Virus record (IMG/VR): IMGVR_UViG_648276647_000016
Location: 1 to 34,499 of that record
Source of the DNA: a virus
Taxonomy: Duplodnaviria > Heunggongvirae > Uroviricota > Caudoviricetes
Strand: one strand, 5' to 3'
Length of the DNA: 34,499 nucleotides
Below the pieces are notes generated by a model. The model was not told where the DNA came from. It ran no database searches and saw only the letters and a list, made by a program, of their open reading frames with translations. Both the position numbers and the translations under genes were made by a program. Shown piece after piece: positions 2,765 through 28,303 of this stretch (its first letter is position 1; each line of letters starts with the position of its first letter).

Positions 2765-5239
2765 TTATTGCGGAGTGACATCCTGAGGTCGCCACCAGTA
2801 TGTCTGGTTAAACTCTTTCTTTGAACGTTGCTCCATTTTACGCAAATAGCCTGGTGAAAAATACTCCTGCATCTGGTTAAAGATCATGTGATCGAGAGCC
2901 GCCTTCAAGTACCAGAGATTCGCACCAGGCATCAAACCTTTCCCCAGCTTAACCAGATCACCACCAGTCTGCTCATTCTTCCCTTCCACAGCATTTAACG
3001 GTATGCCCTGAGCAATCTTCACTACGTCATCAACCAGACCAACTACCGGGCCAAGCATCGACGCTAGTGCGCCGCTCCCGTACCTGGTGTGGTCAGAGAA
3101 AAGAAAATCACCGTACAACCCTGCCCCACCACCTTTTAAAAATGCATTTATCCAGAATTTAACCATGTTGTCACCGGTCATTTCTTTTGGATTTCTCCCA
3201 TTAATAAGATCAGTAATCTGCATGGAAAGAGCACCAAGCATGGTTGTGCTTGCTAAAAACGTTGCTATATATGCTGCACGCCCACCAGCAGACGGCATCC
3301 CCATAGCTCTATGCCAGTGACGCATAACTACCGAGATAGGGAACGATTTAAACAGGAAAACACTTCTCGTTAATTCACCTTTCCATGTTCCACGCTGAAT
3401 ACCAGAACCGGTTATCAGTTGCTCACGTGCTCCCGGTGTAATAACAGCCATATCAACTTCTTCAGTTACGGCACCGAGCAGTTTACGCATTGCCTCAAAT
3501 TTCACGCGTTCAGGCTCACCAAGATGTTTAACTGCTGAATCAGGGATACGCATAATGCTTTCCGGTGTCAGCATCGTATTATTACCGTTCCCCCAGTCCT
3601 CCTGTTGCGCCAGCTTCCATACGCTCCAGTCTGTGTCAGTAATCCCTTTGCTTTTCAGGATACGAAAATCAGAGTCATCGAGGCTACGAAGGTCTGGCGT
3701 CCGTGACACTACTTCTCCCAGGCTTCCCATCATGGTTACGCCATAGGCGCGCTTGTGCGCATCTGACCATGCTGTAAGCCCACTGGCACGCATTACGGCC
3801 GTTGCCGCCCAACGAGACACTGACGGCCCCATATTATCCATCGCCCAGCGGTTAACGCTGCCAAGTAGAGATTCCATCGCCAGACCAGCGCGGCGCGCCC
3901 GCACAAGTTCTGTACGGTTCGTTGGGTCCATAGCTTCAAGCTGGTTGCGGAATAACTGGTTCATTGGAAGGTTGGTAACCTTCGCCGACAGATACATGGT
4001 TCCAAGATCAGAGAACGATGACAGCAACGCGGATCCGAGTCTGCTGGCAACCAGCCAGTTGCGGATATTGTCAGACCATCGCGCGATGTGCGGATTCGCT
4101 ACAGGCTGTGTCTTTCCGGAAATAAAGTTGTACAGATTCTCTGTGTTGTTCGCCAGCCGCTCGACTTTACCGGTTTTACTCGGGTTAGCTGTTGCCGTTT
4201 CTGCCTTCACCTGATCAAGAAGAGAGCGGAAAACATGATCGGGGTTTGGGCCATATGTTTCCACCAGTGCAATATCTTTACTGATACCTTCCAGGTGACC
4301 GACCATGATTTCCCATAGAGAGCGATCGCCATAAAGTTGCTGATATTGCAGATAGGAATCTGCATCTTTGAAATGTATCTGTCGTGATGCATTACCACGG
4401 TTAGCACGTGCGCCGGAAATTCGCATTCCGGTATCAGTAAGCTTATTCAGCCCACCAGTAGCGATCGTGTTATAAGCCTCTCCAAGAAATGCAGACAACT
4501 CAGCATCGTTCATCAGTTGTCCATCGGCTCGGGTATAATATTTGCGATCCAGCTTACCTATAACATCGCTAACCCACTTATCCTTTGATACCGCCCCAAC
4601 CTTTTCCATAGAATGATGTTGAGGGATCCCCCAGTTTTCGAGATAGCCAATGTCCCCACCAGCATCATTAAACCGGCGGCGCAGTAGCTCTGTCACTTCT
4701 CTCCACGCCTTAGCACCTTTTCTTGCTTTAGCATTGCCAGTATTTTGCCCCCGCATTTCATATACCAGGTCACGTACGCCCGCTTCATCTTCAAACAGAC
4801 CAAAAAAGCGAGGATCAACTGCTTCGAATGCCCCCTGCAATTGACTCAATGCATAATCACGGGTGGCTTTTGTTCTGGATTCAACAGAGAGGAAATTCGA
4901 TTTACCGTCTGCATTAAAAGCAATAGTACGGTTAAGAGCACCGAGTTTCCCATCAGCCCCTTGATAGCTATTGATAAATTTATCCAATCTCTGACGTGCG
5001 GCTATAGTGAGGGCCACACGACGTTTATTTAATGCCGCTTCTCGCTGTAATTCTTCAGATGCCAATTGTGCTGCTCGATATAGCCGCTCTGATTCGGAAA
5101 GTTGTCGCCACGACATCGGGTCATCACGAGCAATGGAGCGCATATTTCGATAAATGCGGTCTTCAATGTTCTGTATTTCTCGCGCCGTTAACGTGCGCTG
5201 CGCCGCCTGCTGGACCGCTTGTATACATTCCTGTCTCAT
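2765..5239 (-). CDS. Internal virion / ejection protein, large (T7 gp16-like by position and size)
   Basis: 824-aa ORF, last large gene of the late operon after two other internal-protein genes; assignment is by synteny and size, not a recalled sequence match. Confidence 0.5.
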   Translation of the reverse strand: MRQECIQAVQQAAQRTLTAREIQNIEDRIYRNMRSIARDDPMSWRQLSESERLYRAAQLASEELQREAALNKRRVALTIAARQRLDKFINSYQGADGKLGALNRTIAFNADGKSNFLSVESRTKATRDYALSQLQGAFEAVDPRFFGLFEDEAGVRDLVYEMRGQNTGNAKARKGAKAWREVTELLRRRFNDAGGDIGYLENWGIPQHHSMEKVGAVSKDKWVSDVIGKLDRKYYTRADGQLMNDAELSAFLGEAYNTIATGGLNKLTDTGMRISGARANRGNASRQIHFKDADSYLQYQQLYGDRSLWEIMVGHLEGISKDIALVETYGPNPDHVFRSLLDQVKAETATANPSKTGKVERLANNTENLYNFISGKTQPVANPHIARWSDNIRNWLVASRLGSALLSSFSDLGTMYLSAKVTNLPMNQLFRNQLEAMDPTNRTELVRARRAGLAMESLLGSVNRWAMDNMGPSVSRWAATAVMRASGLTAWSDAHKRAYGVTMMGSLGEVVSRTPDLRSLDDSDFRILKSKGITDTDWSVWKLAQQEDWGNGNNTMLTPESIMRIPDSAVKHLGEPERVKFEAMRKLLGAVTEEVDMAVITPGAREQLITGSGIQRGTWKGELTRSVFLFKSFPISVVMRHWHRAMGMPSAGGRAAYIATFLASTTMLGALSMQITDLINGRNPKEMTGDNMVKFWINAFLKGGGAGLYGDFLFSDHTRYGSGALASMLGPVVGLVDDVVKIAQGIPLNAVEGKNEQTGGDLVKLGKGLMPGANLWYLKAALDHMIFNQMQEYFSPGYLRKMEQRSKKEFNQTYWWRPQDVTPQ

Positions 5240-16572: not shown

Positions 16573-16865
16573 TCCTGTTCACTGGCCTCTTTGGCCATCT
16601 TCAAATACTGTTCAGGGCAATGCGCCATAACGCGCTGAAACAGTTCCAGCGCCAGATTGCGTTGCCCCTCATTAAATGCCATTGCCATAGCGTCCATCGG
16701 TGAGATAGCGGAAAACACACGGCCTTTCTCCAGCACCGACCAGACAACGCGACGCCCCTGTTCACTGCTCATGACAAAGCGAATGTCATCAATTTCACGC
16801 TGCGCCATGTCACGTTGCTTACGGGCGTTTTCTTCTTTCAGTTGATCGTCTTCGTAATCTGTCAT
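16569..16865 (-). CDS. Hypothetical protein translationally coupled between portal and scaffold
   Basis: 98-aa ORF; start overlaps the portal stop and stop overlaps the scaffold start. Confidence 0.45.
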   Translation of the reverse strand: MTDYEDDQLKEENARKQRDMAQREIDDIRFVMSSEQGRRVVWSVLEKGRVFSAISPMDAMAMAFNEGQRNLALELFQRVMAHCPEQYLKMAKEASEQE

Positions 16866-18541
16866 TGTGATTGCCCACCCTGACTACTAACTGCATTTGC
16901 CATAGCTGACAAAACACTCGGATCCGAAGTTTTAGCTTCGCTTAGCGTCTTGGCGCCCTGTGCCGCCGCCATCCCCATCGCCATCATTTGTTGCTGCTGT
17001 TGTTGCTGTGCCCGTTGCTGGCGAGCCTGCTCAACCTGTTCCTGCGGAACAATGACGGTTGGAGACACTCCGGACATATCAGCGAATGCATCAATCGCCT
17101 GATCAACGTTGAGTTTGTCGAGAGCTTCTGGTTTCGCTTGCGCAAGTTGACCAATGAAGTTAACCGTGGACGCCAGACTGGACAGGCCGATAGACTTCTG
17201 CGCCTGAGCCATGACGGAAATGTATTCGACCTTCAGGGGCATGCCTTCCATCGCGTCAGGCGGTGGGGGCAGCATGTTTTTACGCACCATCATCGAGAAA
17301 GCGCGGTCAATAAGAGGATTAAGACATTCGTCGTTCAGACGCTCCAGAACCGGCCCCAACATCAGAAGTTTTTCTTCTTTCATTTCGATCACCGCTTCAA
17401 CAGGCATCGAGCGGGTATTGATGTTCTGCAACATCATGAACAGATCGACAAAGTAGGCGCTGTTAATGATTTGACGAGTGTCCTGAATGTCTGCCACCAA
17501 ATCTGCTGTACTGGGGTTAACCAGATAAGCAGGCCTGAAGCCATCCTGACCAGTAATCTGATCGATATACGTGATGTCGCCAGGAAGAAGGGAGGCGCGC
17601 TGATTCTTGAGGGAAGTCGGAGCAACCATCGGCGGATTGGTGGCTTTATCAATCAACTGCGACTTGCGCTTCTGGAGAAGCTGCAATGCCTTAACAGGTC
17701 CAAGCGCCAGCATACCCGGGCATGATGATCCATAAACATCTTCGCCGTTAACTTCCCAGCGCGGAGCCATAATTGGAAACTCATCGAATCCGGACTCACG
17801 CAACAACTTGTCGTTATCGCCACCAACCTCGTAATAAACCGATTTGAATGGCTTGTTCTTGCTATCCAGCTTCGATGTATCGCGGTCAATGTTCGGGTAA
17901 ACCGAATGCATCACTTCAATCCACTTCTCGTAGGTGCCGCTTTCCCACATGCTTTTTACGGATTCGCTGACGTTATTTAGCCCGAACTCCTGAACAAGCT
18001 GACGAACAGTCATAGAGAACTTGCGAAAACAGGTGTCCACACTGCCACGAGGTGAGTTAGCCAGGTAGTAACTGCCTATCGGGAATGGCATTGTGCGAAT
18101 GATGTCCTCGTCATCCTCCAGCACTGCCATTGCACCAGTGCTGTATGTGCCGAGGCTTCCGTATAACTGCGGCAGCGACTGATAGAGATTCGACTTATTG
18201 AACATATCGTTCATGCGGTTCTGCACCGCCTCAAGCCACAACTTAACAGGGCCATAATCCATCATTTCAGGATCTGGCGTAGCCAGGCGAAACCACGGAC
18301 GCGCGGGGCTTGTGATGCCTGACATCATGCCACTAGCGAGAGTGCGCGCCGCCATAGTCCCGGTCGAATCAATAATGCGTGTATTGCGTCGATCGTTACG
18401 GTTGACCTCAGAAGTCAGAAAGCGGGAACCACGCGGGTTGATGTAATCACTCAACTCGCGCCAGTGCGGCTCGAACGACTGACGCTCGCTTTCAAGTTGT
18501 GCGAACTGTTTGTTCAATCGCTCTTTAGTTGTTTCCGCCAT
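16862..18541 (-). CDS. Portal (head-to-tail connector) protein, T7 gp8-like
   Basis: 559 aa; overall architecture and Gln/Ala/Met-rich C-terminal tail (QQQQQQQMMAMGMAAAQG) as in T7-supergroup portals. Confidence 0.7.
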   Translation of the reverse strand: MAETTKERLNKQFAQLESERQSFEPHWRELSDYINPRGSRFLTSEVNRNDRRNTRIIDSTGTMAARTLASGMMSGITSPARPWFRLATPDPEMMDYGPVKLWLEAVQNRMNDMFNKSNLYQSLPQLYGSLGTYSTGAMAVLEDDEDIIRTMPFPIGSYYLANSPRGSVDTCFRKFSMTVRQLVQEFGLNNVSESVKSMWESGTYEKWIEVMHSVYPNIDRDTSKLDSKNKPFKSVYYEVGGDNDKLLRESGFDEFPIMAPRWEVNGEDVYGSSCPGMLALGPVKALQLLQKRKSQLIDKATNPPMVAPTSLKNQRASLLPGDITYIDQITGQDGFRPAYLVNPSTADLVADIQDTRQIINSAYFVDLFMMLQNINTRSMPVEAVIEMKEEKLLMLGPVLERLNDECLNPLIDRAFSMMVRKNMLPPPPDAMEGMPLKVEYISVMAQAQKSIGLSSLASTVNFIGQLAQAKPEALDKLNVDQAIDAFADMSGVSPTVIVPQEQVEQARQQRAQQQQQQQMMAMGMAAAQGAKTLSEAKTSDPSVLSAMANAVSSQGGQSQ

Positions 18542-18555
18542 TTCAATGACTCCGG

Positions 18556-18762
18556 TTACTGACCAAGTAGCGTTTTACCGCTGGTATTAGCGGTTGATGT
18601 GTCGCCCTGAGAACCGGTAAGCAGCGTAGAACTACGACCAGCAGCAGCGCGACGGCGACGTGTTTCTTCGTCGCGGGCATCAACAACGGCGGCATCCTGC
18701 TCCTGTGGTGCTGCCTGAACTTCTGGTGTTGCAGGCACTGATGGTGAGCTACCCATGCACAT
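18556..18762 (-). CDS. Hypothetical small Ala/Pro-rich protein upstream of portal
   Basis: 68-aa ORF ending 14 bp before the portal start; low-complexity, could be non-coding. Confidence 0.25.
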   Translation of the reverse strand: MCMGSSPSVPATPEVQAAPQEQDAAVVDARDEETRRRRAAAGRSSTLLTGSQGDTSTANTSGKTLLGQ

Positions 18763-18830
18763 ATCAATGACTCCGTACGCAATTAAATTATTACCAATTT
18801 AACCACATATGATTTATTTGTCGTAGATAG

Positions 18831-18867
18831 TTGACATTTAACGCACAAATTATTACCTTTAGGGTAA
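18831..18867 (+). promoter_or_regulatory. Promoter-like element (TTGACA at 18831-18836) with operator palindrome TTACCTTTAGGGTAA (18853-18867)
   Basis: Resembles the PL-like promoter/operator at 28395-28438; oriented toward the tRNA module. Confidence 0.45.
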
Positions 18868-19189
18868 CAAAAGAGTTCATTCCGTTTACTAACCTGACTG
18901 GCTTGTCGTTAAATTGAACAGGTGGAGTGAGCTTTTATTTTGAGCAGTACGGCGTATGGCACATGCGCCGATAGCGGTCTGGATACGTTTAAGGGGCACC
19001 CTCCCTTGCTCGGGCAAACGAACCAGGTAGCCGGAATGTGCAAGTCGAGCGGTTTTATTCCGCGCACGGGGATTCACCATCCCGGCGATTCGGTGTGACA
19101 CCTCGGAAGAGACGAGGGTACAACGATGAGAGCATTTATGGAGCCGCGACAAAGTGTGGCGCCTTAACAGGCTAAGTGCTCTCAGCGTT

Positions 19190-19266
19190 GTGGCATTAGC
19201 TCAGCTGGACAGAGCAACCGCCTTCTAAGCGGTTGGTCGCAGGTTCGAATCCTGCATGCCACGCCA
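19190..19266 (+). tRNA. tRNA-Arg (anticodon UCU)
   Basis: Hand-folded cloverleaf: acceptor GTGGCAT/ATGCCAC, D-stem GCTC/GAGC, anticodon stem ACCGC/GCGGT with loop CUUCUAA, T-arm GCAGG-TTCGAAT-CCTGC, discriminator G and encoded CCA. Confidence 0.85.
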
Positions 19267-19464
19267 GAATCACGCCTAAGGACCGTGATGCCAGAAGTTC
19301 CAGGGGCTTGGCGGTGATGGTTTCCCTTGAAGGACTATCACCGCCCTTTTTACAGCAGGACGCCATTGCGATGACTTCATGCTGTAAACCAGTACAGCCA
19401 CGGAAGGCATAACTCATTGCTTCCAGTTCGCCCGGTTCGCCGGGCATTTTTTTAAGGTGAGATT

Positions 19465-19821
19465 ATGAACGACCAGCAAATCGAAAAAGAAATCGTTGAG
19501 AAAGGCAAAACGGCACCGCGAGTTACGCCCCAATATATCGAAAGCATCATTCTTGAAGAGCATTTCTTTACTGCTTATGACGGTATTCGTGCCGCCAATA
19601 TGGGCGTTGGCGCTGCGTGGACAGCGCATAAATCTACAGACCTCCTTACTTTCTGCGTACTGGTGCTGAAGAATGGCTTCACCGTCACCGGAGAGAGCGC
19701 CTGTGCAAGTCCGGAAAATTTTGATGCAGAAATTGGTCGGAAGATTGCCCGGCAGAATGCTGTAAACAAAATCTGGATGCTCGAAGGTTACTTGCTGAAG
19801 CAGAAGCTAAGCGAGCAATAA
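19465..19821 (+). CDS. Conserved small phage protein (possibly N4 Gp49 / Sf6 Gp66-like)
   Basis: 118-aa ORF downstream of the tRNA; family assignment is a tentative recollection. Confidence 0.45.
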   Translation: MNDQQIEKEIVEKGKTAPRVTPQYIESIILEEHFFTAYDGIRAANMGVGAAWTAHKSTDLLTFCVLVLKNGFTVTGESACASPENFDAEIGRKIARQNAVNKIWMLEGYLLKQKLSEQ

Positions 19822-19825
19822 CACC

Positions 19826-19837
19826 GTGACATGTCAC
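19826..19837. repeat. Palindrome GTGACATGTCAC (copy 1, flanks cCGTGACATGTCACAa)
   Basis: Exact 12-bp palindrome between the Gp49-like gene stop and the terminator. Confidence 0.6.
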
Positions 19838-19842
19838 AAACA

Positions 19843-19870
19843 GCCAGCCGATGAGCTGGCTTTGTTTTAT
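19843..19870 (+). terminator. Rho-independent terminator (AGCCAGC-CGATGA-GCTGGCT + TTTGTTTTAT)
   Basis: Perfect 7-bp stem followed by a T-rich tract; sits between the convergent plus-strand module and the terminase large-subunit gene. Confidence 0.6.
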
Positions 19871-19911
19871 CCTCACCAGAGGATATCAGCAGCATTATCC
19901 CCTCCAGCGGA

Positions 19912-21387
19912 TTAAGCATAGGGATCGTAATCAGTGATGGCCTTGCCTTGCTGGTTCTGCTGCCCGGGAATTCGCAGGCGCTTCGACACAGGGAACGCAA
20001 ACGTCAGCAGTAGCGCATCGCCTTTACCCGGCGAACGCCCAAGCCGCTCCTTGATATCTTCCTTCGGTTCGATAACGATTTTACCGTCCACTCGAACTTT
20101 GTACTCTGCCGCCGACAGGTCGTCCGCTGTTTCCTGGTCATCCAGCATCCCGCCGAGCCTCAGCCATATCTTGCATGCATTGAACATCTCCCCACGCTTG
20201 TTGAGCATCTGAGGGTCAGTAGACGCGCCACCGAACGGAACAAGTTGCCATGTACGACCCCACCCGTCACCGATTGACTTCAGACCAGTTCCGTAACCGA
20301 AGTCGATGAACACTGCGTCAGCCTGGTACTGGTCTTCAAAGTCAGCGATACGCTTCGCCATAATCAGATCGTCAGTGGTCTTGTTGCCAGTCCACAGCAC
20401 CTTACTGTGCAGACCCTGCCGCAGGTATATCACAGCGTCATCAACGCCGGAGTATGCCGGGTCAACGCCGATTATCACCGGAGCATGTGCAACCTGCGCA
20501 GCGGTTACCACCCGTTTCATTGCCTCGTCAGTAAGGCCGGTAGGGATAAACTGCAATTCAGATGCATCCGGGAATATGCCGCGCACACGGATTTTAACGA
20601 AATCGCTGTCTTCCCCGTAGTCATCAACCCATTTCTGCAACTGCTGTTTGTTAGTGCCTTCCACCGTCCGGCTGTCAATCTGCGCAGTTTTCCAGCGGTG
20701 TTTATATTTGCGGAAACATTCGCGGAAACGCCCGGTGTTACGTGTCGGGTTTCCGAACGCCACCCAGATAATCTCAGTGTCTTCGTCCGTAAGCGCGCCC
20801 TCAGCAACTTCCCACACCAGATCCGCAATGTTCGACGCTTCATCGAATACCACGATGATGCGTTTGCGCTCGTTGTGTAGTCCGGCGAATGCCTCAGTAT
20901 TGTGCTCAGACCAGGGGATTGCGTCAGCTCGCCACCGCTTGTCGTGCCCAGGATCATTGCTGTACATCGCGGTAGCGGTACAGGTAAACCAGTCTTTCGT
21001 GATAGCAAGGTTCGACCACTTGATAATTTCCGGCCAGGTCTTCGTTCGTAGCTGGTTGTCGGTGTTGGCGGTCACCACGACCTTACAATCCTCGCAAGTG
21101 GACATGCCCCAGTTGATCAGCATTGAGATGAATGCGGATTTACCAATACCGTGACCAGAAGCGCGTGCCAGCATAAGCGGCTGATAGCGCGTCTCTGGAT
21201 TCTGCAGGTGATCACGTATCTCTCTGAACGCATCAGCCTGCCACTGACGTGGACCGGTGGCATGTGCTAATTCAGTCCCCTCTTCCCCCCACGGGAACGC
21301 ATAGAGGGCATAGCCAAGCGGATCGTGAGTGAACCCTGCAATATCCTCGATCAACTGCTCTTCAGGAGATAACGCTGTATCTGTCAC
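19912..21387 (-). CDS. Terminase large subunit
   Basis: 491 aa with an N-terminal ATPase-like region (GHGIGKSAF Walker-A-like) and C-terminal nuclease-like region; 4-nt overlap with the upstream small-subunit gene. Confidence 0.75.
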   Translation of the reverse strand: MTDTALSPEEQLIEDIAGFTHDPLGYALYAFPWGEEGTELAHATGPRQWQADAFREIRDHLQNPETRYQPLMLARASGHGIGKSAFISMLINWGMSTCEDCKVVVTANTDNQLRTKTWPEIIKWSNLAITKDWFTCTATAMYSNDPGHDKRWRADAIPWSEHNTEAFAGLHNERKRIIVVFDEASNIADLVWEVAEGALTDEDTEIIWVAFGNPTRNTGRFRECFRKYKHRWKTAQIDSRTVEGTNKQQLQKWVDDYGEDSDFVKIRVRGIFPDASELQFIPTGLTDEAMKRVVTAAQVAHAPVIIGVDPAYSGVDDAVIYLRQGLHSKVLWTGNKTTDDLIMAKRIADFEDQYQADAVFIDFGYGTGLKSIGDGWGRTWQLVPFGGASTDPQMLNKRGEMFNACKIWLRLGGMLDDQETADDLSAAEYKVRVDGKIVIEPKEDIKERLGRSPGKGDALLLTFAFPVSKRLRIPGQQNQQGKAITDYDPYA

Positions 21388-21980
21388 TGATTACCATCCT
21401 GACGTTCTTTGAGTCGCTTCCTGGCTGCTGCTATGCGATCAGCAATTGTCACATTCACATTAACATCCAGACGTTCTTTGAACGCGTTGACATCAACATG
21501 CTTACCAATCAGCTCAAGATTCTTCACCTTGTCAGGCCATTTAATTTTTTTGAGGATTGTCTCTATCGAATCCTCGTTCATGTTCATGATGGTCGATGAC
21601 AGATCAAAGCCGCTAAGCGTAGTGCGCCAGATTTTCGGCCACTCGCGGATTGGCTTAAGGCTCCCATCGTCGTTGAGGATATCAATCACGTCCATCTGGT
21701 CGATCTCCACCAGGCGCATGAGAACGTAATCAGCACTGACACGCATTCGTTTGTTGCGCTCTTCCATCAGCTCGGCAATCCGTTTTTGAATGCGTTCATC
21801 GCGCATCATGACACTGGCTTTAACTGCCGCTGTATTTGGGGAGAATCCTGCGTTAATCGCTGCCTGAGTCTGGTTTTCAGGCGTTTTGATGTATGACTGG
21901 CAATAAGCCTCCTGCATTGCTGTTAGTGGCTTAAATTGCGTTGATTTGCGTTTATAGGTTTTAGGTTCAGCAGGCATCAT
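21384..21980 (-). CDS. Terminase small subunit
   Basis: Position immediately upstream of the large subunit with overlap. Start placed at the ATG at 21978-21980; the track start at 22058 is a TTG preceding a low-complexity Thr/Val stretch. Confidence 0.55.
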   Translation of the reverse strand: MMPAEPKTYKRKSTQFKPLTAMQEAYCQSYIKTPENQTQAAINAGFSPNTAAVKASVMMRDERIQKRIAELMEERNKRMRVSADYVLMRLVEIDQMDVIDILNDDGSLKPIREWPKIWRTTLSGFDLSSTIMNMNEDSIETILKKIKWPDKVKNLELIGKHVDVNAFKERLDVNVNVTIADRIAAARKRLKERQDGNQ

Positions 21981-22054
21981 AACCACCGTGGTAATAGTTA
22001 CCGTTGTGGTAATAGTACCATGCAAAATAAAGCCGCCATAGTTGGCGGCAGTAT

Positions 22055-22288
22055 TCAAAGTCCATCAAATTCATCGTAAAAACTCTCGTCAAGATACCCT
22101 TCCCATTTACCGCGAATGAAAATTACATCCTCGCCGCAAGGGTGCTGACTGTCGATAACTATATCCCTCCTGGCGCAACCATACTTATGCATGAGAAATT
22201 TAACCTCTTTCGGAAAATTTGCTGAGTTATCTCTCATATCTTCAAGGTCGTAGCGTATTTTTGGCATAACACCTTCGTGACATGTCAC
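22055..22288 (-). CDS. Hypothetical protein
   Basis: 77-aa ORF; its ATG lies inside the palindrome GTGACATGTCAC (22277-22288). Confidence 0.4.
   Translation of the reverse strand: MTCHEGVMPKIRYDLEDMRDNSANFPKEVKFLMHKYGCARRDIVIDSQHPCGEDVIFIRGKWEGYLDESFYDEFDGL
22277..22288. repeat. Palindrome GTGACATGTCAC (copy 2, flanks tCGTGACATGTCACAc)
   Basis: Exact copy overlapping the start codon of the 22055-22288 gene. Confidence 0.6.
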
Positions 22289-27718: not shown

Positions 27719-28303
27719 ATGAAAAGTATCCAGGACGTCCGCAGGCAAAATCTCAACGACTTGATCGACCGTGAATTCAATGGTGTTCAGACGCGGATGG
27801 CAGAAAAACTTGGAACTCAGGCAAATCTGGTAAACCGCTGGGCTCTTGGCAAGAAGGTTATCGGCGACCAGGTTGCTCGAAAAATTGAAGCTGCCGCCAA
27901 TAAACCCCGTAACTGGCTTGATATCGATCGCTCGCTTTCTCATGAAGGTTTTCAGCCTGTCGGCCCAAGCGACATTGGTCAGCTGGCGGCTCACAACCTG
28001 GAACGCTGGATGAGCGAAAGCCGCGACCTTTCAACGCAGGGAAAACTTCACCGCGCATCCGGCGTCGCCCAGGTGACAATCAGCCGCCTGTTAAACAATG
28101 AGGTCAGCGTTTCCATTTCCACCCTGGAGAATGTTGCATCCGCATTCGGGCGTCACGGATATGAACTACTGATTCACCCGCACGACCCTGCGACTATCAA
28201 CTATGACCGCTCGCGCTACGCATTGTTACCCGAAACCGAGAAAGCAAAGATTGAAAGTTACATTGAATTTGTCATCAACCAGAACGAAAAAAGCAAACAA
28301 TAA
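27719..28303 (+). CDS. Prophage immunity repressor, tandem HTH domains, no S24 peptidase domain
   Basis: 194 aa with two XRE-like HTH segments (QTRMAEKLGTQANLVNRW and LHRASGVAQVTISRLLN); no Ala-Gly/Ser-Lys autocleavage module; divergent from cro and followed by a terminator. Confidence 0.65.
   Translation: MKSIQDVRRQNLNDLIDREFNGVQTRMAEKLGTQANLVNRWALGKKVIGDQVARKIEAAANKPRNWLDIDRSLSHEGFQPVGPSDIGQLAAHNLERWMSESRDLSTQGKLHRASGVAQVTISRLLNNEVSVSISTLENVASAFGRHGYELLIHPHDPATINYDRSRYALLPETEKAKIESYIEFVINQNEKSKQ

Follow-up and report, generated by a model that had tools for sequence, protein, structure and literature searches.

The leader of a small transcription unit in a phiV10/epsilon15-type prophage contains a conserved structured RNA of 244 nt, which almost certainly constitutes a family of its own. 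The RNA extends from position 18946 to 19189 on the plus strand of the window, i.e., the whole 34,499-nt stretch of phage DNA analysed here, and forms the 3' part of a leader of about 320 nt. The surrounding interval, 18831-19870, is very probably a repressor-controlled accessory transcription unit that fills the gap between the portal gene (16862-18541) and the terminase gene (19912-21387). Both genes are on the minus strand, the unit is on the plus strand. Its order is promoter with operator, about 80 nt of unconserved leader, the 244-nt RNA, a gene for tRNA-Arg(UCU), two units each consisting of hairpin and terminator, a gene of the Acb4 family, and the terminator T3. A preliminary description had proposed that a promoter-like element with operator precedes a leader, the tRNA, a small gene and a terminator, the whole running opposite to the late operon, and this anatomy was confirmed. 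A module of tRNA and gene, as envisaged there, is an incomplete account: alongside both, the unit contains two sRNA-like units and a total of three terminators, and the gene is a member of an anti-defence family. How the leader folds and how well it is conserved had been overlooked, as had the identity of the 118-aa gene and two additional plus-strand terminator hairpins.

Fold and conservation of the leader RNA

The core of the RNA (18946-19120, plus strand) is supported by a covariance model, covariation and fold z-score. From 5' to 3' it contains helix H1 (18950-18955 with 18965-18970), P2 (18978-18981 with 19024-19027), which encloses a variable hairpin, an invariant 19-mer, GGUAGCCGGAAUGUGCAAG (19026-19044), the variable hairpin P3 at about 19050-19064, P4 (19069-19072 with 19080-19083), and P5 (19101-19105 with 19113-19117). 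A loop sequence CACC (19075-19078) pairs with GGUG (19092-19095) to form a pseudoknot. Four helices and this pseudoknot are supported by compensatory changes among 34 representatives. In this set, ten pairs show such changes, none of 500 shuffles equalled the observed score, and pairing was found in 98.4% of the cells, compared to 25-52% when the partners were slid against each other. Numerous G-U pairs are compatible with the plus strand only, and the fold z-score was -3.4 for the plus strand and -2.0 for the minus strand. The covariance model, R1, detected a single copy in the window with 145.9 bits (E 2e-46) and matched all fetched loci with 105-165 bits. Invariant core and compensatory changes hold over 45 sequence clusters. 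A pseudoknot proposed first, GCACAU (18959-18964) with AUGUGC (19036-19041), is invariant in the main set. It was considered unsupported because the variants AUAUGC and AUGCGC, fetched with degenerate patterns and present in eight loci, are never compensated at GCACAU.

Nothing was found in Rfam 15 over the leader RNA of the window, neither at the gathering score nor at E values up to 10, and the scan of 18868-19189 suggested in the preliminary description likewise gave no family match at E up to 10. For the homologous stretches of P1, cdtI, SopranoGao and BUCT708, Rfam likewise returned nothing with E up to 1. The RNA is unannotated in RefSeq, and no description of it emerged from the literature, searched by topic and with sequence strings.

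The complex fold, the invariant junction nucleotides and the position in a 5' leader are features that a riboswitch-like sensor would share, in which expression of the early operon would depend on a small molecule or ion bound by the pseudoknotted core. RNAalifold also predicted a different, long-range pairing in competition with H1. A conserved expression platform or a coupled terminator is missing, however, the sequence after P5 varies by locus, and no riboswitch family of Rfam was matched at E up to 10. A sensor of this kind is quite improbable.

Conservation of the region could also reflect a small protein encoded in the leader, or constraint on the DNA itself, e.g., at a junction where phage modules recombine. 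ORFs of 45-87 aa overlap the leader region, GenBank entries place hypothetical proteins over the element, for example mEp460_037, and the element is located at mosaic boundaries between phage modules. The preliminary description had seen no convincing ORF and had named a conserved small protein as the observation that would speak against its reading. Among 44 representatives, however, the share in which any given frame is open never exceeds 36%, and lengths differ by insertions and deletions that are not multiples of three. Coding for a protein was rejected for these reasons. As the substitutions are compensatory and the G-U pairs suit one strand only, an explanation by protein or DNA-level conservation retains very little probability.

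The 3' part of the RNA (19121-19189, plus strand) is the P6 domain, in which a closing helix of CAACGAUGAGAGCAUU with AAGUGCUCUCAGCGUUG surrounds a variable insert. The 3' strand of P6 extends into the first bases of the tRNA. P6 is present in most variants, with inserts of 21 to 183 nt. All 17 distinct pairs of P6 strands give duplexes of 13-16 bp. Cognate duplexes had a mean of -19.7 kcal/mol versus -15.3 kcal/mol for non-cognate ones, and the cognate partner ranked first or second in 12 of the 17 cases. The sequence UGCUCU in the 3' strand was considered as a free boxA and rejected, since this strand is base-paired and covaries. Some inserts contain tRNA-like T-arm pieces, and P6-like units are repeated downstream in three loci (L075, L104 and L100). 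With the tRNA start lying just inside the end of the P6 3' strand, and with an RNase III site annotated in the region in epsilon15, these features would suit a processing or expression platform, i.e., a folding or RNase-recognition module of core and P6 that launches small-RNA cargo placed behind or inside it, such as the tRNA, sRNA mimics or rRNA-like fragments. Against it, many lambdoid copies are without P6 or any recognisable RNA cargo, and the invariant core would be left unexplained. A platform of this type is regarded as unlikely.

Promoter, operator and distribution of the RNA

Upstream of the leader, a sigma-70-type promoter is predicted from sequence and conservation at 18831-18859 on the plus strand, with TTGACA (18831-18836) as -35 region, a 17-nt spacer and TACCTT (18854-18859) as -10 region. 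A consensus promoter scanner called no promoter at this site because TACCTT fits the consensus at only three of six positions. TTGACA, the 17-nt spacer and the key positions T-A-T of the -10 region are kept in eight divergent Uetakevirus-type loci, including epsilon15. Transcription would start near 18866, and the stretch from there to 18945 constitutes the poorly conserved 5' part of the leader, whose length varies in relatives between about 0 and 85 nt.

The -10 hexamer and the presumed start are covered by the palindrome TTACC-N5-GGTAA (18853-18867, strand-neutral), assigned as operator by copy count and conservation. Twelve copies are present in the window versus 0.59 expected, a number reached in none of 100 shuffles. 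In Uetakevirus-type loci the half-sites are conserved and the centre is variable, and the GenBank record of epsilon15 labels the homologous site as repressor-binding site. Further copies flank the gene of an HTH_3 protein, precede the isrK/C4 antirepressor region, and are located near the replication genes and at the small-terminase start. The same palindrome heads several transcription units, which form a dispersed phage operator regulon. With conserved hexamers and spacing and an operator repeated across the window, the promoter-like element with phage operator noted in the preliminary description is well founded.

The RNA is widespread. It was detected in 1,836 of 5,426 complete E. coli genomes, about a third, with the annotation 'none' in almost all matches listed, and in 24 species-representative genome assemblies, 22 of them from Enterobacterales and two from MAGs labelled Bacillota. 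A covariance model for the RNA would annotate thousands of intergenic regions that are blank or mis-annotated. Three unrelated phage groups carry it: Uetakeviruses in the gap between portal and terminase, lambdoid phages without recognisable N just after pL, and P1 upstream of ban. Among 151 fetched loci, 64 were lambdoid, 51 of Uetakevirus type and 17 of P1 type. In Uetakeviruses, lambdoid phages without recognisable N, and P1-like phages, the RNA lies at the head of predicted early, repressor-controlled transcripts. In the window it follows the operator-overlapped promoter after about 84 nt. In cdtI, the stop codon of cI is followed by a terminator, the promoter TTGACA-16-CATAAT with a palindrome, and the RNA approximately 45 nt further on. 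The same arrangement was seen in two other loci, L027 and L163, the operator of the latter being 8 nt before the first hairpin. In SopranoGao, the RNA comes after the lysis genes, and in epsilon15 most of it is lost, terminator and gene being kept. A second copy on the pR side, comparable to putR, was sought in lambdoid loci and not found; a degenerate tandem copy is present in one locus, L027. No N-like protein was detected with Pfam and PHROGs among the first early-left genes of lambdoid carriers.

The RNA occurs with or without an adjoining tRNA. When present, the tRNA is its immediate neighbour and without exception shares its strand: tRNA-Arg is located at the 3' end in 33 loci, and tRNA-Ile2(CAT) is 14 nt from the 5' end in 18 loci. 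The position directly 5' of the tRNA, as in the window, would be expected of an ordinary tRNA precursor leader without own function. This explanation is contradicted by the approximately 60% of loci without tRNA, by P1, in which the RNA is downstream of the tRNA, on the strand of the ban operon and 2.4 kb from Pban, and by compensatory changes and an invariant core across the 45 clusters. It can practically be dismissed. For the leader of about 320 nt, the preliminary description had offered an unrecognised ncRNA and a processed precursor as possibilities; the former holds, and the latter, as a mere precursor, fails on the same observations.

tRNA, sRNA-like units and protein gene behind the RNA

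The tRNA-Arg(UCU) with encoded CCA end at 19190-19266 (plus strand) was identified correctly in the preliminary description. ARAGORN, the check proposed there, called tRNA-Arg(tct) at exactly this position, the Rfam model RF00005 scored 71.7 bits (gathering score 29), and relatives in RefSeq have it annotated as tRNA-Arg. AGA codons amount to 6.2 per 1000 in the ORFs of the window; in E. coli, usage is roughly 2 per 1000. From these codon counts, the tRNA most likely supplements the rare AGA decoder of the host. As a canonical tRNA in a phage whose ORFs use AGA above the level typical of E. coli, it resembles other phage-borne tRNAs for rare codons, for example those of P1 and the tRNA-Arg of phiV10-like phages. 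The difference is that this otherwise ordinary tRNA is fused to a conserved structured RNA which also travels without it.

Two sRNA-like units follow on the plus strand, defined by terminator scan and centroid fold. The first (19267-19353) consists of a 5' hairpin (19269-19289), a single-stranded stretch, and the stem of terminator T1 (19310-19345) followed by CUUUUU. The predicted layout, 5' hairpin, single-stranded seed and Rho-independent terminator, is that of Hfq-type sRNAs. Hairpin and T1 are conserved in Uetakevirus-type relatives, the stretch between them is variable and has an RprA-like seed in some. No match to the RprA family was obtained in the window at E up to 10; the relative BUCT708 reached 50.2 bits, below the gathering score of 70. 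The second unit (19349-19453) contains hairpins at 19349-19388 and 19402-19423 and the T2 stem (19430-19445) with a U-run to 19453. This U-run adjoins the ribosome-binding site AAGGUGAG of the Acb4-family gene, leaving no room for a separate promoter. In relatives, T2 is located immediately 5' of the starts of different cargo genes.

The 118-aa gene, noted in the preliminary description, is located at 19465-19821 on the plus strand. Its product, named 'Gp49 family protein' in RefSeq, matches PF13876 with 118.6 bits (cut-off 27) over profile positions 1-82 of 82. PF13876 is defined as the Acb4 family, and 3'3'-cGAMP was bound by eight of eight homologues tested (PMC11722364). By its full-length family match the protein is predicted to be a member of the Acb4 anti-CBASS family of cyclic-dinucleotide sponges, and the gene can be re-labelled as such; direct similarity to SPO1 Acb4 (PDB 9e4w) is weak (E 0.006). 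The same slot is occupied by a Tad2-like gene in a Klebsiella relative. Other cargo proteins of relatives, of 262 aa and 142 aa, gave no informative family. RNA cargo in relatives resembles host RNAs, with an RprA-like seed, a 16S-like fragment and a weak DicF-like match. New anti-defence genes and RNA mimics may be sought in the slot behind the RNA.

The gene is followed by T3 (19842-19870), detected by the terminator scan as a stem at 19842-19861 and UUGUUUUAUC, in agreement with the strong terminator proposed before. It had also been suggested that this hairpin attenuates late transcription from terminase into portal. The sequence does not support this: the scanner listed T3 on the plus strand only, and on the minus strand the hairpin is followed by GTTTGT, not a T-run. 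The phiV10 record annotates the homologous hairpin as a terminator on the terminase strand. Strong terminators precede the early-left genes in BUCT708 and two further loci (L097 and L099). In general, plus-strand terminators are not enriched downstream of the RNA, with 0.77 per 700 nt compared to 0.75 upstream, and just 51% of loci have one within 700 nt downstream.

Taken with the cargo, the RNA may be a stable trans-acting molecule within an early anti-defence package. Its release from the early transcript would depend on RNase P, cutting at the 5' end of the tRNA, in the window and on tRNA 3' processing in P1, and its target would be a component of the host or of a defence system, which it might engage as decoy or sponge. 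Adjoining tRNAs that always abut on the same strand, in the 33 tRNA-Arg and 18 tRNA-Ile2(CAT) loci, are consistent with such a product, as are the anti-defence proteins of the unit, Acb4 in the window and Tad2-like in the Klebsiella relative, and the cargo that looks like mimics of host RNAs. An invariant 19-mer would also suit recognition of a conserved partner. On the other hand, about 60% of the loci have no tRNA to set an end, and a trans-acting role appears rather doubtful. If it applied, the RNA would be a rare RNA-based factor for host takeover or anti-defence.

Comparison with put and other known RNAs

In bacteria, very few cases of transcription elongation controlled by RNA alone are known, put and EAR among them. 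The put RNAs of HK022 and HK639 are cis-acting processive antiterminators that bind the zinc-binding domain of the RNA polymerase beta' subunit. Like put, the RNA described here is located directly after a repressor-controlled early promoter in enterobacterial phages without recognisable N. Its first hairpin, ACGGCG...CAUGCGUCG, matches putL stem I of HK022 and HK639 at its base, including a G-U pair and a U equivalent to the essential U28. By analogy, a cis-acting, put-like action on RNA polymerase is put forward tentatively, as the favoured guess at the function of the structured RNA. As put RNAs do, it would adopt its fold while transcription is still under way and attach to the elongating polymerase. 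The RNA-bound polymerase would then partly pass the intrinsic terminators before the cargo, in the window T1 and T2 in front of acb4 and in lambdoid relatives those between pL and the early-left genes. Polymerases stopping at these terminators would give rise to the RNA, the tRNA and the small RNAs. The invariant 19-mer and the near-exclusive range of Enterobacterales fit binding to a conserved host machine.

The RNA does not belong to the put family. While put consists of two stems of approximately 70 nt in total, the RNA has 175-245 nt with P2, P4, P5 and a covarying pseudoknot; positions equivalent to the A9-G35 platform needed by put vary, the pR-side copy is absent, and Uetakeviruses and P1 are also carriers. 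R1 at E up to 10 gave no match in the HK639 genome and in the pL-pR region of HK022, and BLAST against the HK022 region gave no match to the RNA. Membership was rejected since neither search gave a match and the two RNAs are built differently, sharing no more than the U and the basal part of stem I.

Several observations were counted against the put-like role itself. A fully terminator-resistant polymerase would not stop at T3 either and would enter the terminase gene in antisense direction. Other points were the differences from put in size, architecture and A9-G35 platform, the failure of R1 to match the put regions, the lack of terminator enrichment downstream, the distance of the P1 RNA from Pban, the position in SopranoGao, the retention of terminator and gene without most of the RNA in epsilon15, and the missing pR-side copy.

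Lambda nutL, which acts with N, is likewise located between pL and the early-left genes. In contrast to this system, an N-like protein was not found for the RNA, and UGCUCU of P6, being paired, is not a free boxA. Terminator passage in lambdoid phages without N, in Uetakeviruses and in the P1 ban operon is largely unexplored. With less than even confidence, the 244-nt RNA may be viewed as a second class of phage RNA, with a structure of its own, that reprogrammes the host unaided, either a polymerase-binding processive antiterminator much larger than put or an RNA-only anti-defence factor expressed first after infection. In this capacity it would head a modular 'cargo bay' for tRNAs, sRNA mimics and anti-defence sponge genes.

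ROOL and GOLLD are large structured RNAs of phages and prophages with complex conserved folds, often encoded beside tRNA genes. Judged by these descriptions, the RNA would resemble them in being phage-borne, tRNA-adjacent and intricately folded. It differs in that Rfam searches at E up to 10 gave nothing, in its much smaller size, and in its occurrence in Enterobacterales, not Firmicutes or rumen organisms.

Layout and control of the accessory module

The window is a phiV10/epsilon15-type E. coli prophage (genus Uetakevirus), with 97% identity over 18500-20000 to phiV10, O157 typing phages, and many E. coli chromosomes. RefSeq annotation gives the order portal protein, small hypothetical protein, tRNA-Arg, 'Gp49 family protein', and terminase. 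According to ORF calls, the portal gene (16862-18541), a small gene (18556-18762), and the genes for the large (19912-21387) and small terminase (21384-22058) are located on the minus strand. The accessory module, from its promoter to the last terminator, is on the plus strand, opposite to the portal and terminase genes. The tRNA, gene, and terminator assigned to it in the preliminary description were all recovered: ARAGORN called tRNA-Arg(tct) at 19190-19266 (Rfam 71.7 bits, threshold 29), and a 118-aa ORF (19465-19821, here acb4) is followed by a hairpin with a T-run (19842-19861). Two more plus-strand terminator hairpins, T1 (19310-19345) and T2 (19430-19445), lie between tRNA and acb4 and were absent from that description. 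These components are ordinary and already annotated; the novelty is the leader of about 320 nt preceding the tRNA. Codon counts revealed AGA at 6.2 per 1000 codons in the ORFs of the window, more than the roughly 2 per 1000 that are usual in E. coli, and the role of the tRNA is most simply to supplement AGA decoding.

No promoter was called at this site by a consensus scanner, because the -10 region retains just three key positions. Alignment of eight divergent Uetakevirus-type loci revealed conservation of TTGACA (18831-18836), a 17-nt spacer, and TACCTT (18854-18859), overlapped by the palindrome TTACC-N5-GGTAA (18853-18867) with constant half-sites and a variable center. Conserved hexamers, spacing, and a recurrent palindrome thus support the promoter with phage operator proposed earlier. 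The palindrome occurs 12 times in the window (at 921, 1301, 18853, 21980, 21998, 25257, 25319, 27264, 27601, 27649, 28361, and 28423), compared to 0.59 copies expected. These copies constitute a dispersed operator regulon, and the plus-strand promoter therefore belongs to a set under the control of a single DNA-binding protein, for which the prophage repressor is the simplest candidate. The homologous site of epsilon15 is annotated as repressor-binding in its record. Other copies precede the isrK/C4 antirepressor region, are found at the small-terminase start and near replication genes, or flank the gene of an HTH_3 protein (27719-28303) on both sides. Behind the copy at 1301-1315, isrK (1352-1427, 77.9 bits) and C4 antisense RNA (1452-1537, 77.7 bits) are followed by a Bro-N antirepressor gene (1585-2280); 1301-2280 is an antirepressor control region like ImmI of P1/P7, here within a Uetakevirus prophage. 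Upstream of the -35 hexamer and facing the portal-side genes, a second ATTATTACC string (18787-18795) within a block of strong conservation, AAATTATTACCAATTTAACCACATATGATTTATTT, could be a half-operator or a piece of a divergent promoter.

The final hairpin, which might attenuate transcription from terminase into portal according to the preliminary description, was called by the terminator scan on the plus strand only. On the minus strand, GTTTGT follows it instead of a T-run, and the sequence thus does not support attenuation; the phiV10 record, however, places the homologous hairpin on the terminase strand. T1 and T2 have no minus-strand T-runs either, and late transcription is therefore probably able to pass through the module. 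Judged from the sequence, convergent transcription over the module would be expected, because the same operator type is present at the small-terminase start.

A conserved structured RNA in the leader

A sensitive BLAST search (query 18770-19200) showed that unrelated phages share the 3' two-thirds of the leader with 70-83% identity, among them P1, P7, D6, SJ46, and RCS47, the lambdoid phages cdtI, mEp460, Ayreon, and Stx2c phages, Klebsiella phage SopranoGao, and phage BUCT708. All these matches are to unannotated DNA. An invariant 19-mer, GGTAGCCGGAATGTGCAAG (19026-19044), retrieved at least 120 viral contigs and was present in 24 species-representative genome assemblies, 22 from Enterobacterales and two labelled as Bacillota MAGs. 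The fetched versions formed 45 clusters at 93% identity.

Structure was tested on 34 representatives, with covariation compared to 500 shuffles and a control in which pairing partners were moved by one to three columns. The tested fold consists of hairpin H1, helix P2 around a variable hairpin, a second variable hairpin P3, hairpins P4 and P5, and a pseudoknot between CACC in the P4 loop and a downstream GGUG. Standard pairs were present in 98.4% of the cells, compared to 25-52% with the partners slid, ten pairs showed both-sided changes (73 cells), and the observed covariation was reached in none of the 500 shuffles. The pseudoknot covaries as well, from C-G to A-U in four lineages. Many G-U pairs are compatible with the plus strand only, and fold stability relative to shuffles was z = -3.4 for the plus and z = -2.0 for the minus strand. 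A second pseudoknot that we proposed, GCACAU/AUGUGC, is unsupported, since natural variants of its 3' strand are not compensated. A riboswitch-like sensor, as one reading of this conserved fold, is improbable.

A covariance model built from the alignment found one copy in the window (18946-19120, 145.9 bits) and matched every fetched locus with 105-165 bits. In the adjoining P6 domain (19121-19189), a closing helix surrounds an insert that varies from 21 to 183 nt. All 17 distinct strand pairs of P6 form duplexes of 13-16 bp, cognate ones being more stable than mixed ones, and the 3' strand extends into the 5'-terminal bases of the tRNA. The P6 inserts of two loci, L104 and L013, contain T-arm-like strings (GGTTCGATTCC and GGTTCAATTCC) that gave no ARAGORN tRNA call and may represent remnants of tRNAs or pieces resembling them. 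Another locus, L027, has two copies on one strand (3997-4156 and 4804-4961), about 650 nt apart with an opposite-strand gene between them; the downstream copy is degenerate (119.5 bits), its core altered to GGAAGCUGG.

Rfam 15 gave no match over the element at E values up to 10 in the window and up to 1 in four relatives, which fits the unrecognised ncRNA considered in the preliminary description. The core is present in 1,836 of 5,426 complete E. coli genomes, each of which carries it up to four times, and is located on chromosomes and P1-like plasmids alike. Among the matches listed, annotation of the core was 'none' in 39 of 40 and hypothetical protein in one. Some GenBank records overlay hypothetical ORFs on the RNA features: mEp460_037 overlies the structured RNA on the opposite strand, and PhiV10p04 runs across the tRNA/T1 region (window 19196-19447, minus strand). 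Both are probably mis-annotations. Searches by sequence string and topic in the literature other than King et al. 2011, the paper most likely to be relevant, yielded no description of the RNA. It is therefore treated, with this caveat on the literature, as undescribed. The family is widespread, strongly supported, and located at the start of phage early transcripts.

Genomic position and possible function

The 151 fetched loci with the exact core comprise 64 lambdoid, 51 Uetakevirus-type, 17 P1-type, and 19 unclassified ones. Lambdoid loci have the order cI, terminator, pL, structured RNA, early-left genes. A palindrome in cdtI overlaps a near-consensus promoter (TTGACA-16-CATAAT) located about 45 nt upstream of H1. 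In Uetakeviruses, the spacing between the operator-bearing promoter and the RNA that follows it varies, being about 8 nt in L163 and about 84 nt in the window. The P1 copy has tRNA-Ile2 14 nt upstream and ban downstream, and its strand is that of the ban operon. Epsilon15 (L005, 2304-2395) harbors a truncated remnant with the 5' part only (41.6 bits) and no tRNA, and has kept the terminator and the Acb4-family gene gp50.

A tRNA adjoins the RNA in a minority of loci, tRNA-Arg(UCU) directly 3' in 33 and tRNA-Ile2 directly 5' in 18, on the same strand in all cases. Therefore, the RNA is not a tRNA leader as such, and this distribution together with the covarying fold speaks against the processed precursor that had been the other suggestion for the leader. 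No reading frame in the leader is open in more than 36% of the representatives, in agreement with the earlier lack of a convincing ORF, and a conserved small protein is therefore not indicated. A plain precursor leader, a small protein, and a DNA-level element are, even jointly, very improbable. The adjoining tRNAs would suit a stable trans-acting RNA freed by tRNA processing, with an early role in anti-defence or host takeover; with tRNAs at a minority of loci, this reading is tentative and slightly less likely than the put-like one considered below.

Anatomy, conservation, structure, and the position heading repressor-controlled early transcripts are established; for the mechanism, we infer by analogy that the RNA may act in cis to modify the elongating polymerase, like put, the antiterminator RNA of phages HK022 and HK639. 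This function is plausible, if tentative. It is suggested by the position at the head of early transcripts, by the lack of a recognisable N-like protein among the first early-left genes of lambdoid loci, and by the terminators separating the RNA from its cargo, with no space for a separate promoter before acb4. Strong terminators also precede the early-left genes in some lambdoid loci. Furthermore, comparison of window 18950-18970 with L010 (about 4279-4308) and L131 (34187-34312) showed that the H1 stem ACGGCG...CAUGCGUCG is identical to the basal part of stem I in putL of HK022 and HK639, with a counterpart of the essential U28, whereas the rest of the RNAs is unrelated. Several observations argue against such a function. 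BLAST and the covariance model rejected membership in the put family, and the A9-G35 platform of put is not retained. Downstream terminators are not enriched overall across loci, the RNA is not adjacent to a known promoter in P1 and SopranoGao, and epsilon15 copes without the full RNA. Full antitermination would also lead to antisense transcription into the terminase gene.

Exchangeable cargo behind the RNA

The layout downstream of the RNA is conserved in Uetakevirus-type loci: a hairpin, a variable single-stranded stretch, and T1 are followed by a hairpin and T2. The U-run of T2 directly adjoins the ribosome-binding site of the next gene, a variable cargo gene. In the window, this gene is acb4, the product of which matches Pfam PF13876 with 118.6 bits. 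A 2024 preprint (PMC11722364) defined PF13876 as Acb4, a family of cyclic-dinucleotide sponges directed against CBASS. The direct match to the solved SPO1 Acb4 is weak, and the 'Gp49 family' gene is a candidate for such a sponge. Klebsiella phage ST512-KPC3phi13.3 specifies a Tad2-like protein (PF11195) in the same slot (L156, 3697-4218), and in other relatives unrelated proteins are encoded there, either a coiled-coil protein of 262 aa that is hydrophobic in its N-terminal part or a protein of 142 aa, neither with an informative family match. With protein and RNA cargo exchangeable, the unit would thus appear to be an early accessory, anti-defence locus.

RNA cargo includes RprA-like seeds (AAGCUGUGUGUAGUCGUU in L104 and L085) in the variable stretch before T1 of some Uetakevirus-type relatives. 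Just behind the element, BUCT708 (L009, 2131-2250) carries an RprA-like sRNA with seed AAUUGCUGUGUGUAGUCUU and a terminator, scoring 50.2 bits with Rfam RprA, below the gathering score of 70. In these cases, the phage could be mimicking a host sRNA. That the structured RNA serves as a processing platform for small-RNA cargo is unlikely. In L104 (3971-4017; also seen in L100), a stretch of 47 nt behind the element matches small-subunit rRNA models (38.3 bits, E 2e-7) and looks like a 16S rRNA fragment within a phage leader. In L085, the element is followed on its own strand by a weak DicF-like match (802-854; 27.7 bits, gathering score 48), and a 'dicF-like region' is present in the P1 ban operon, too.
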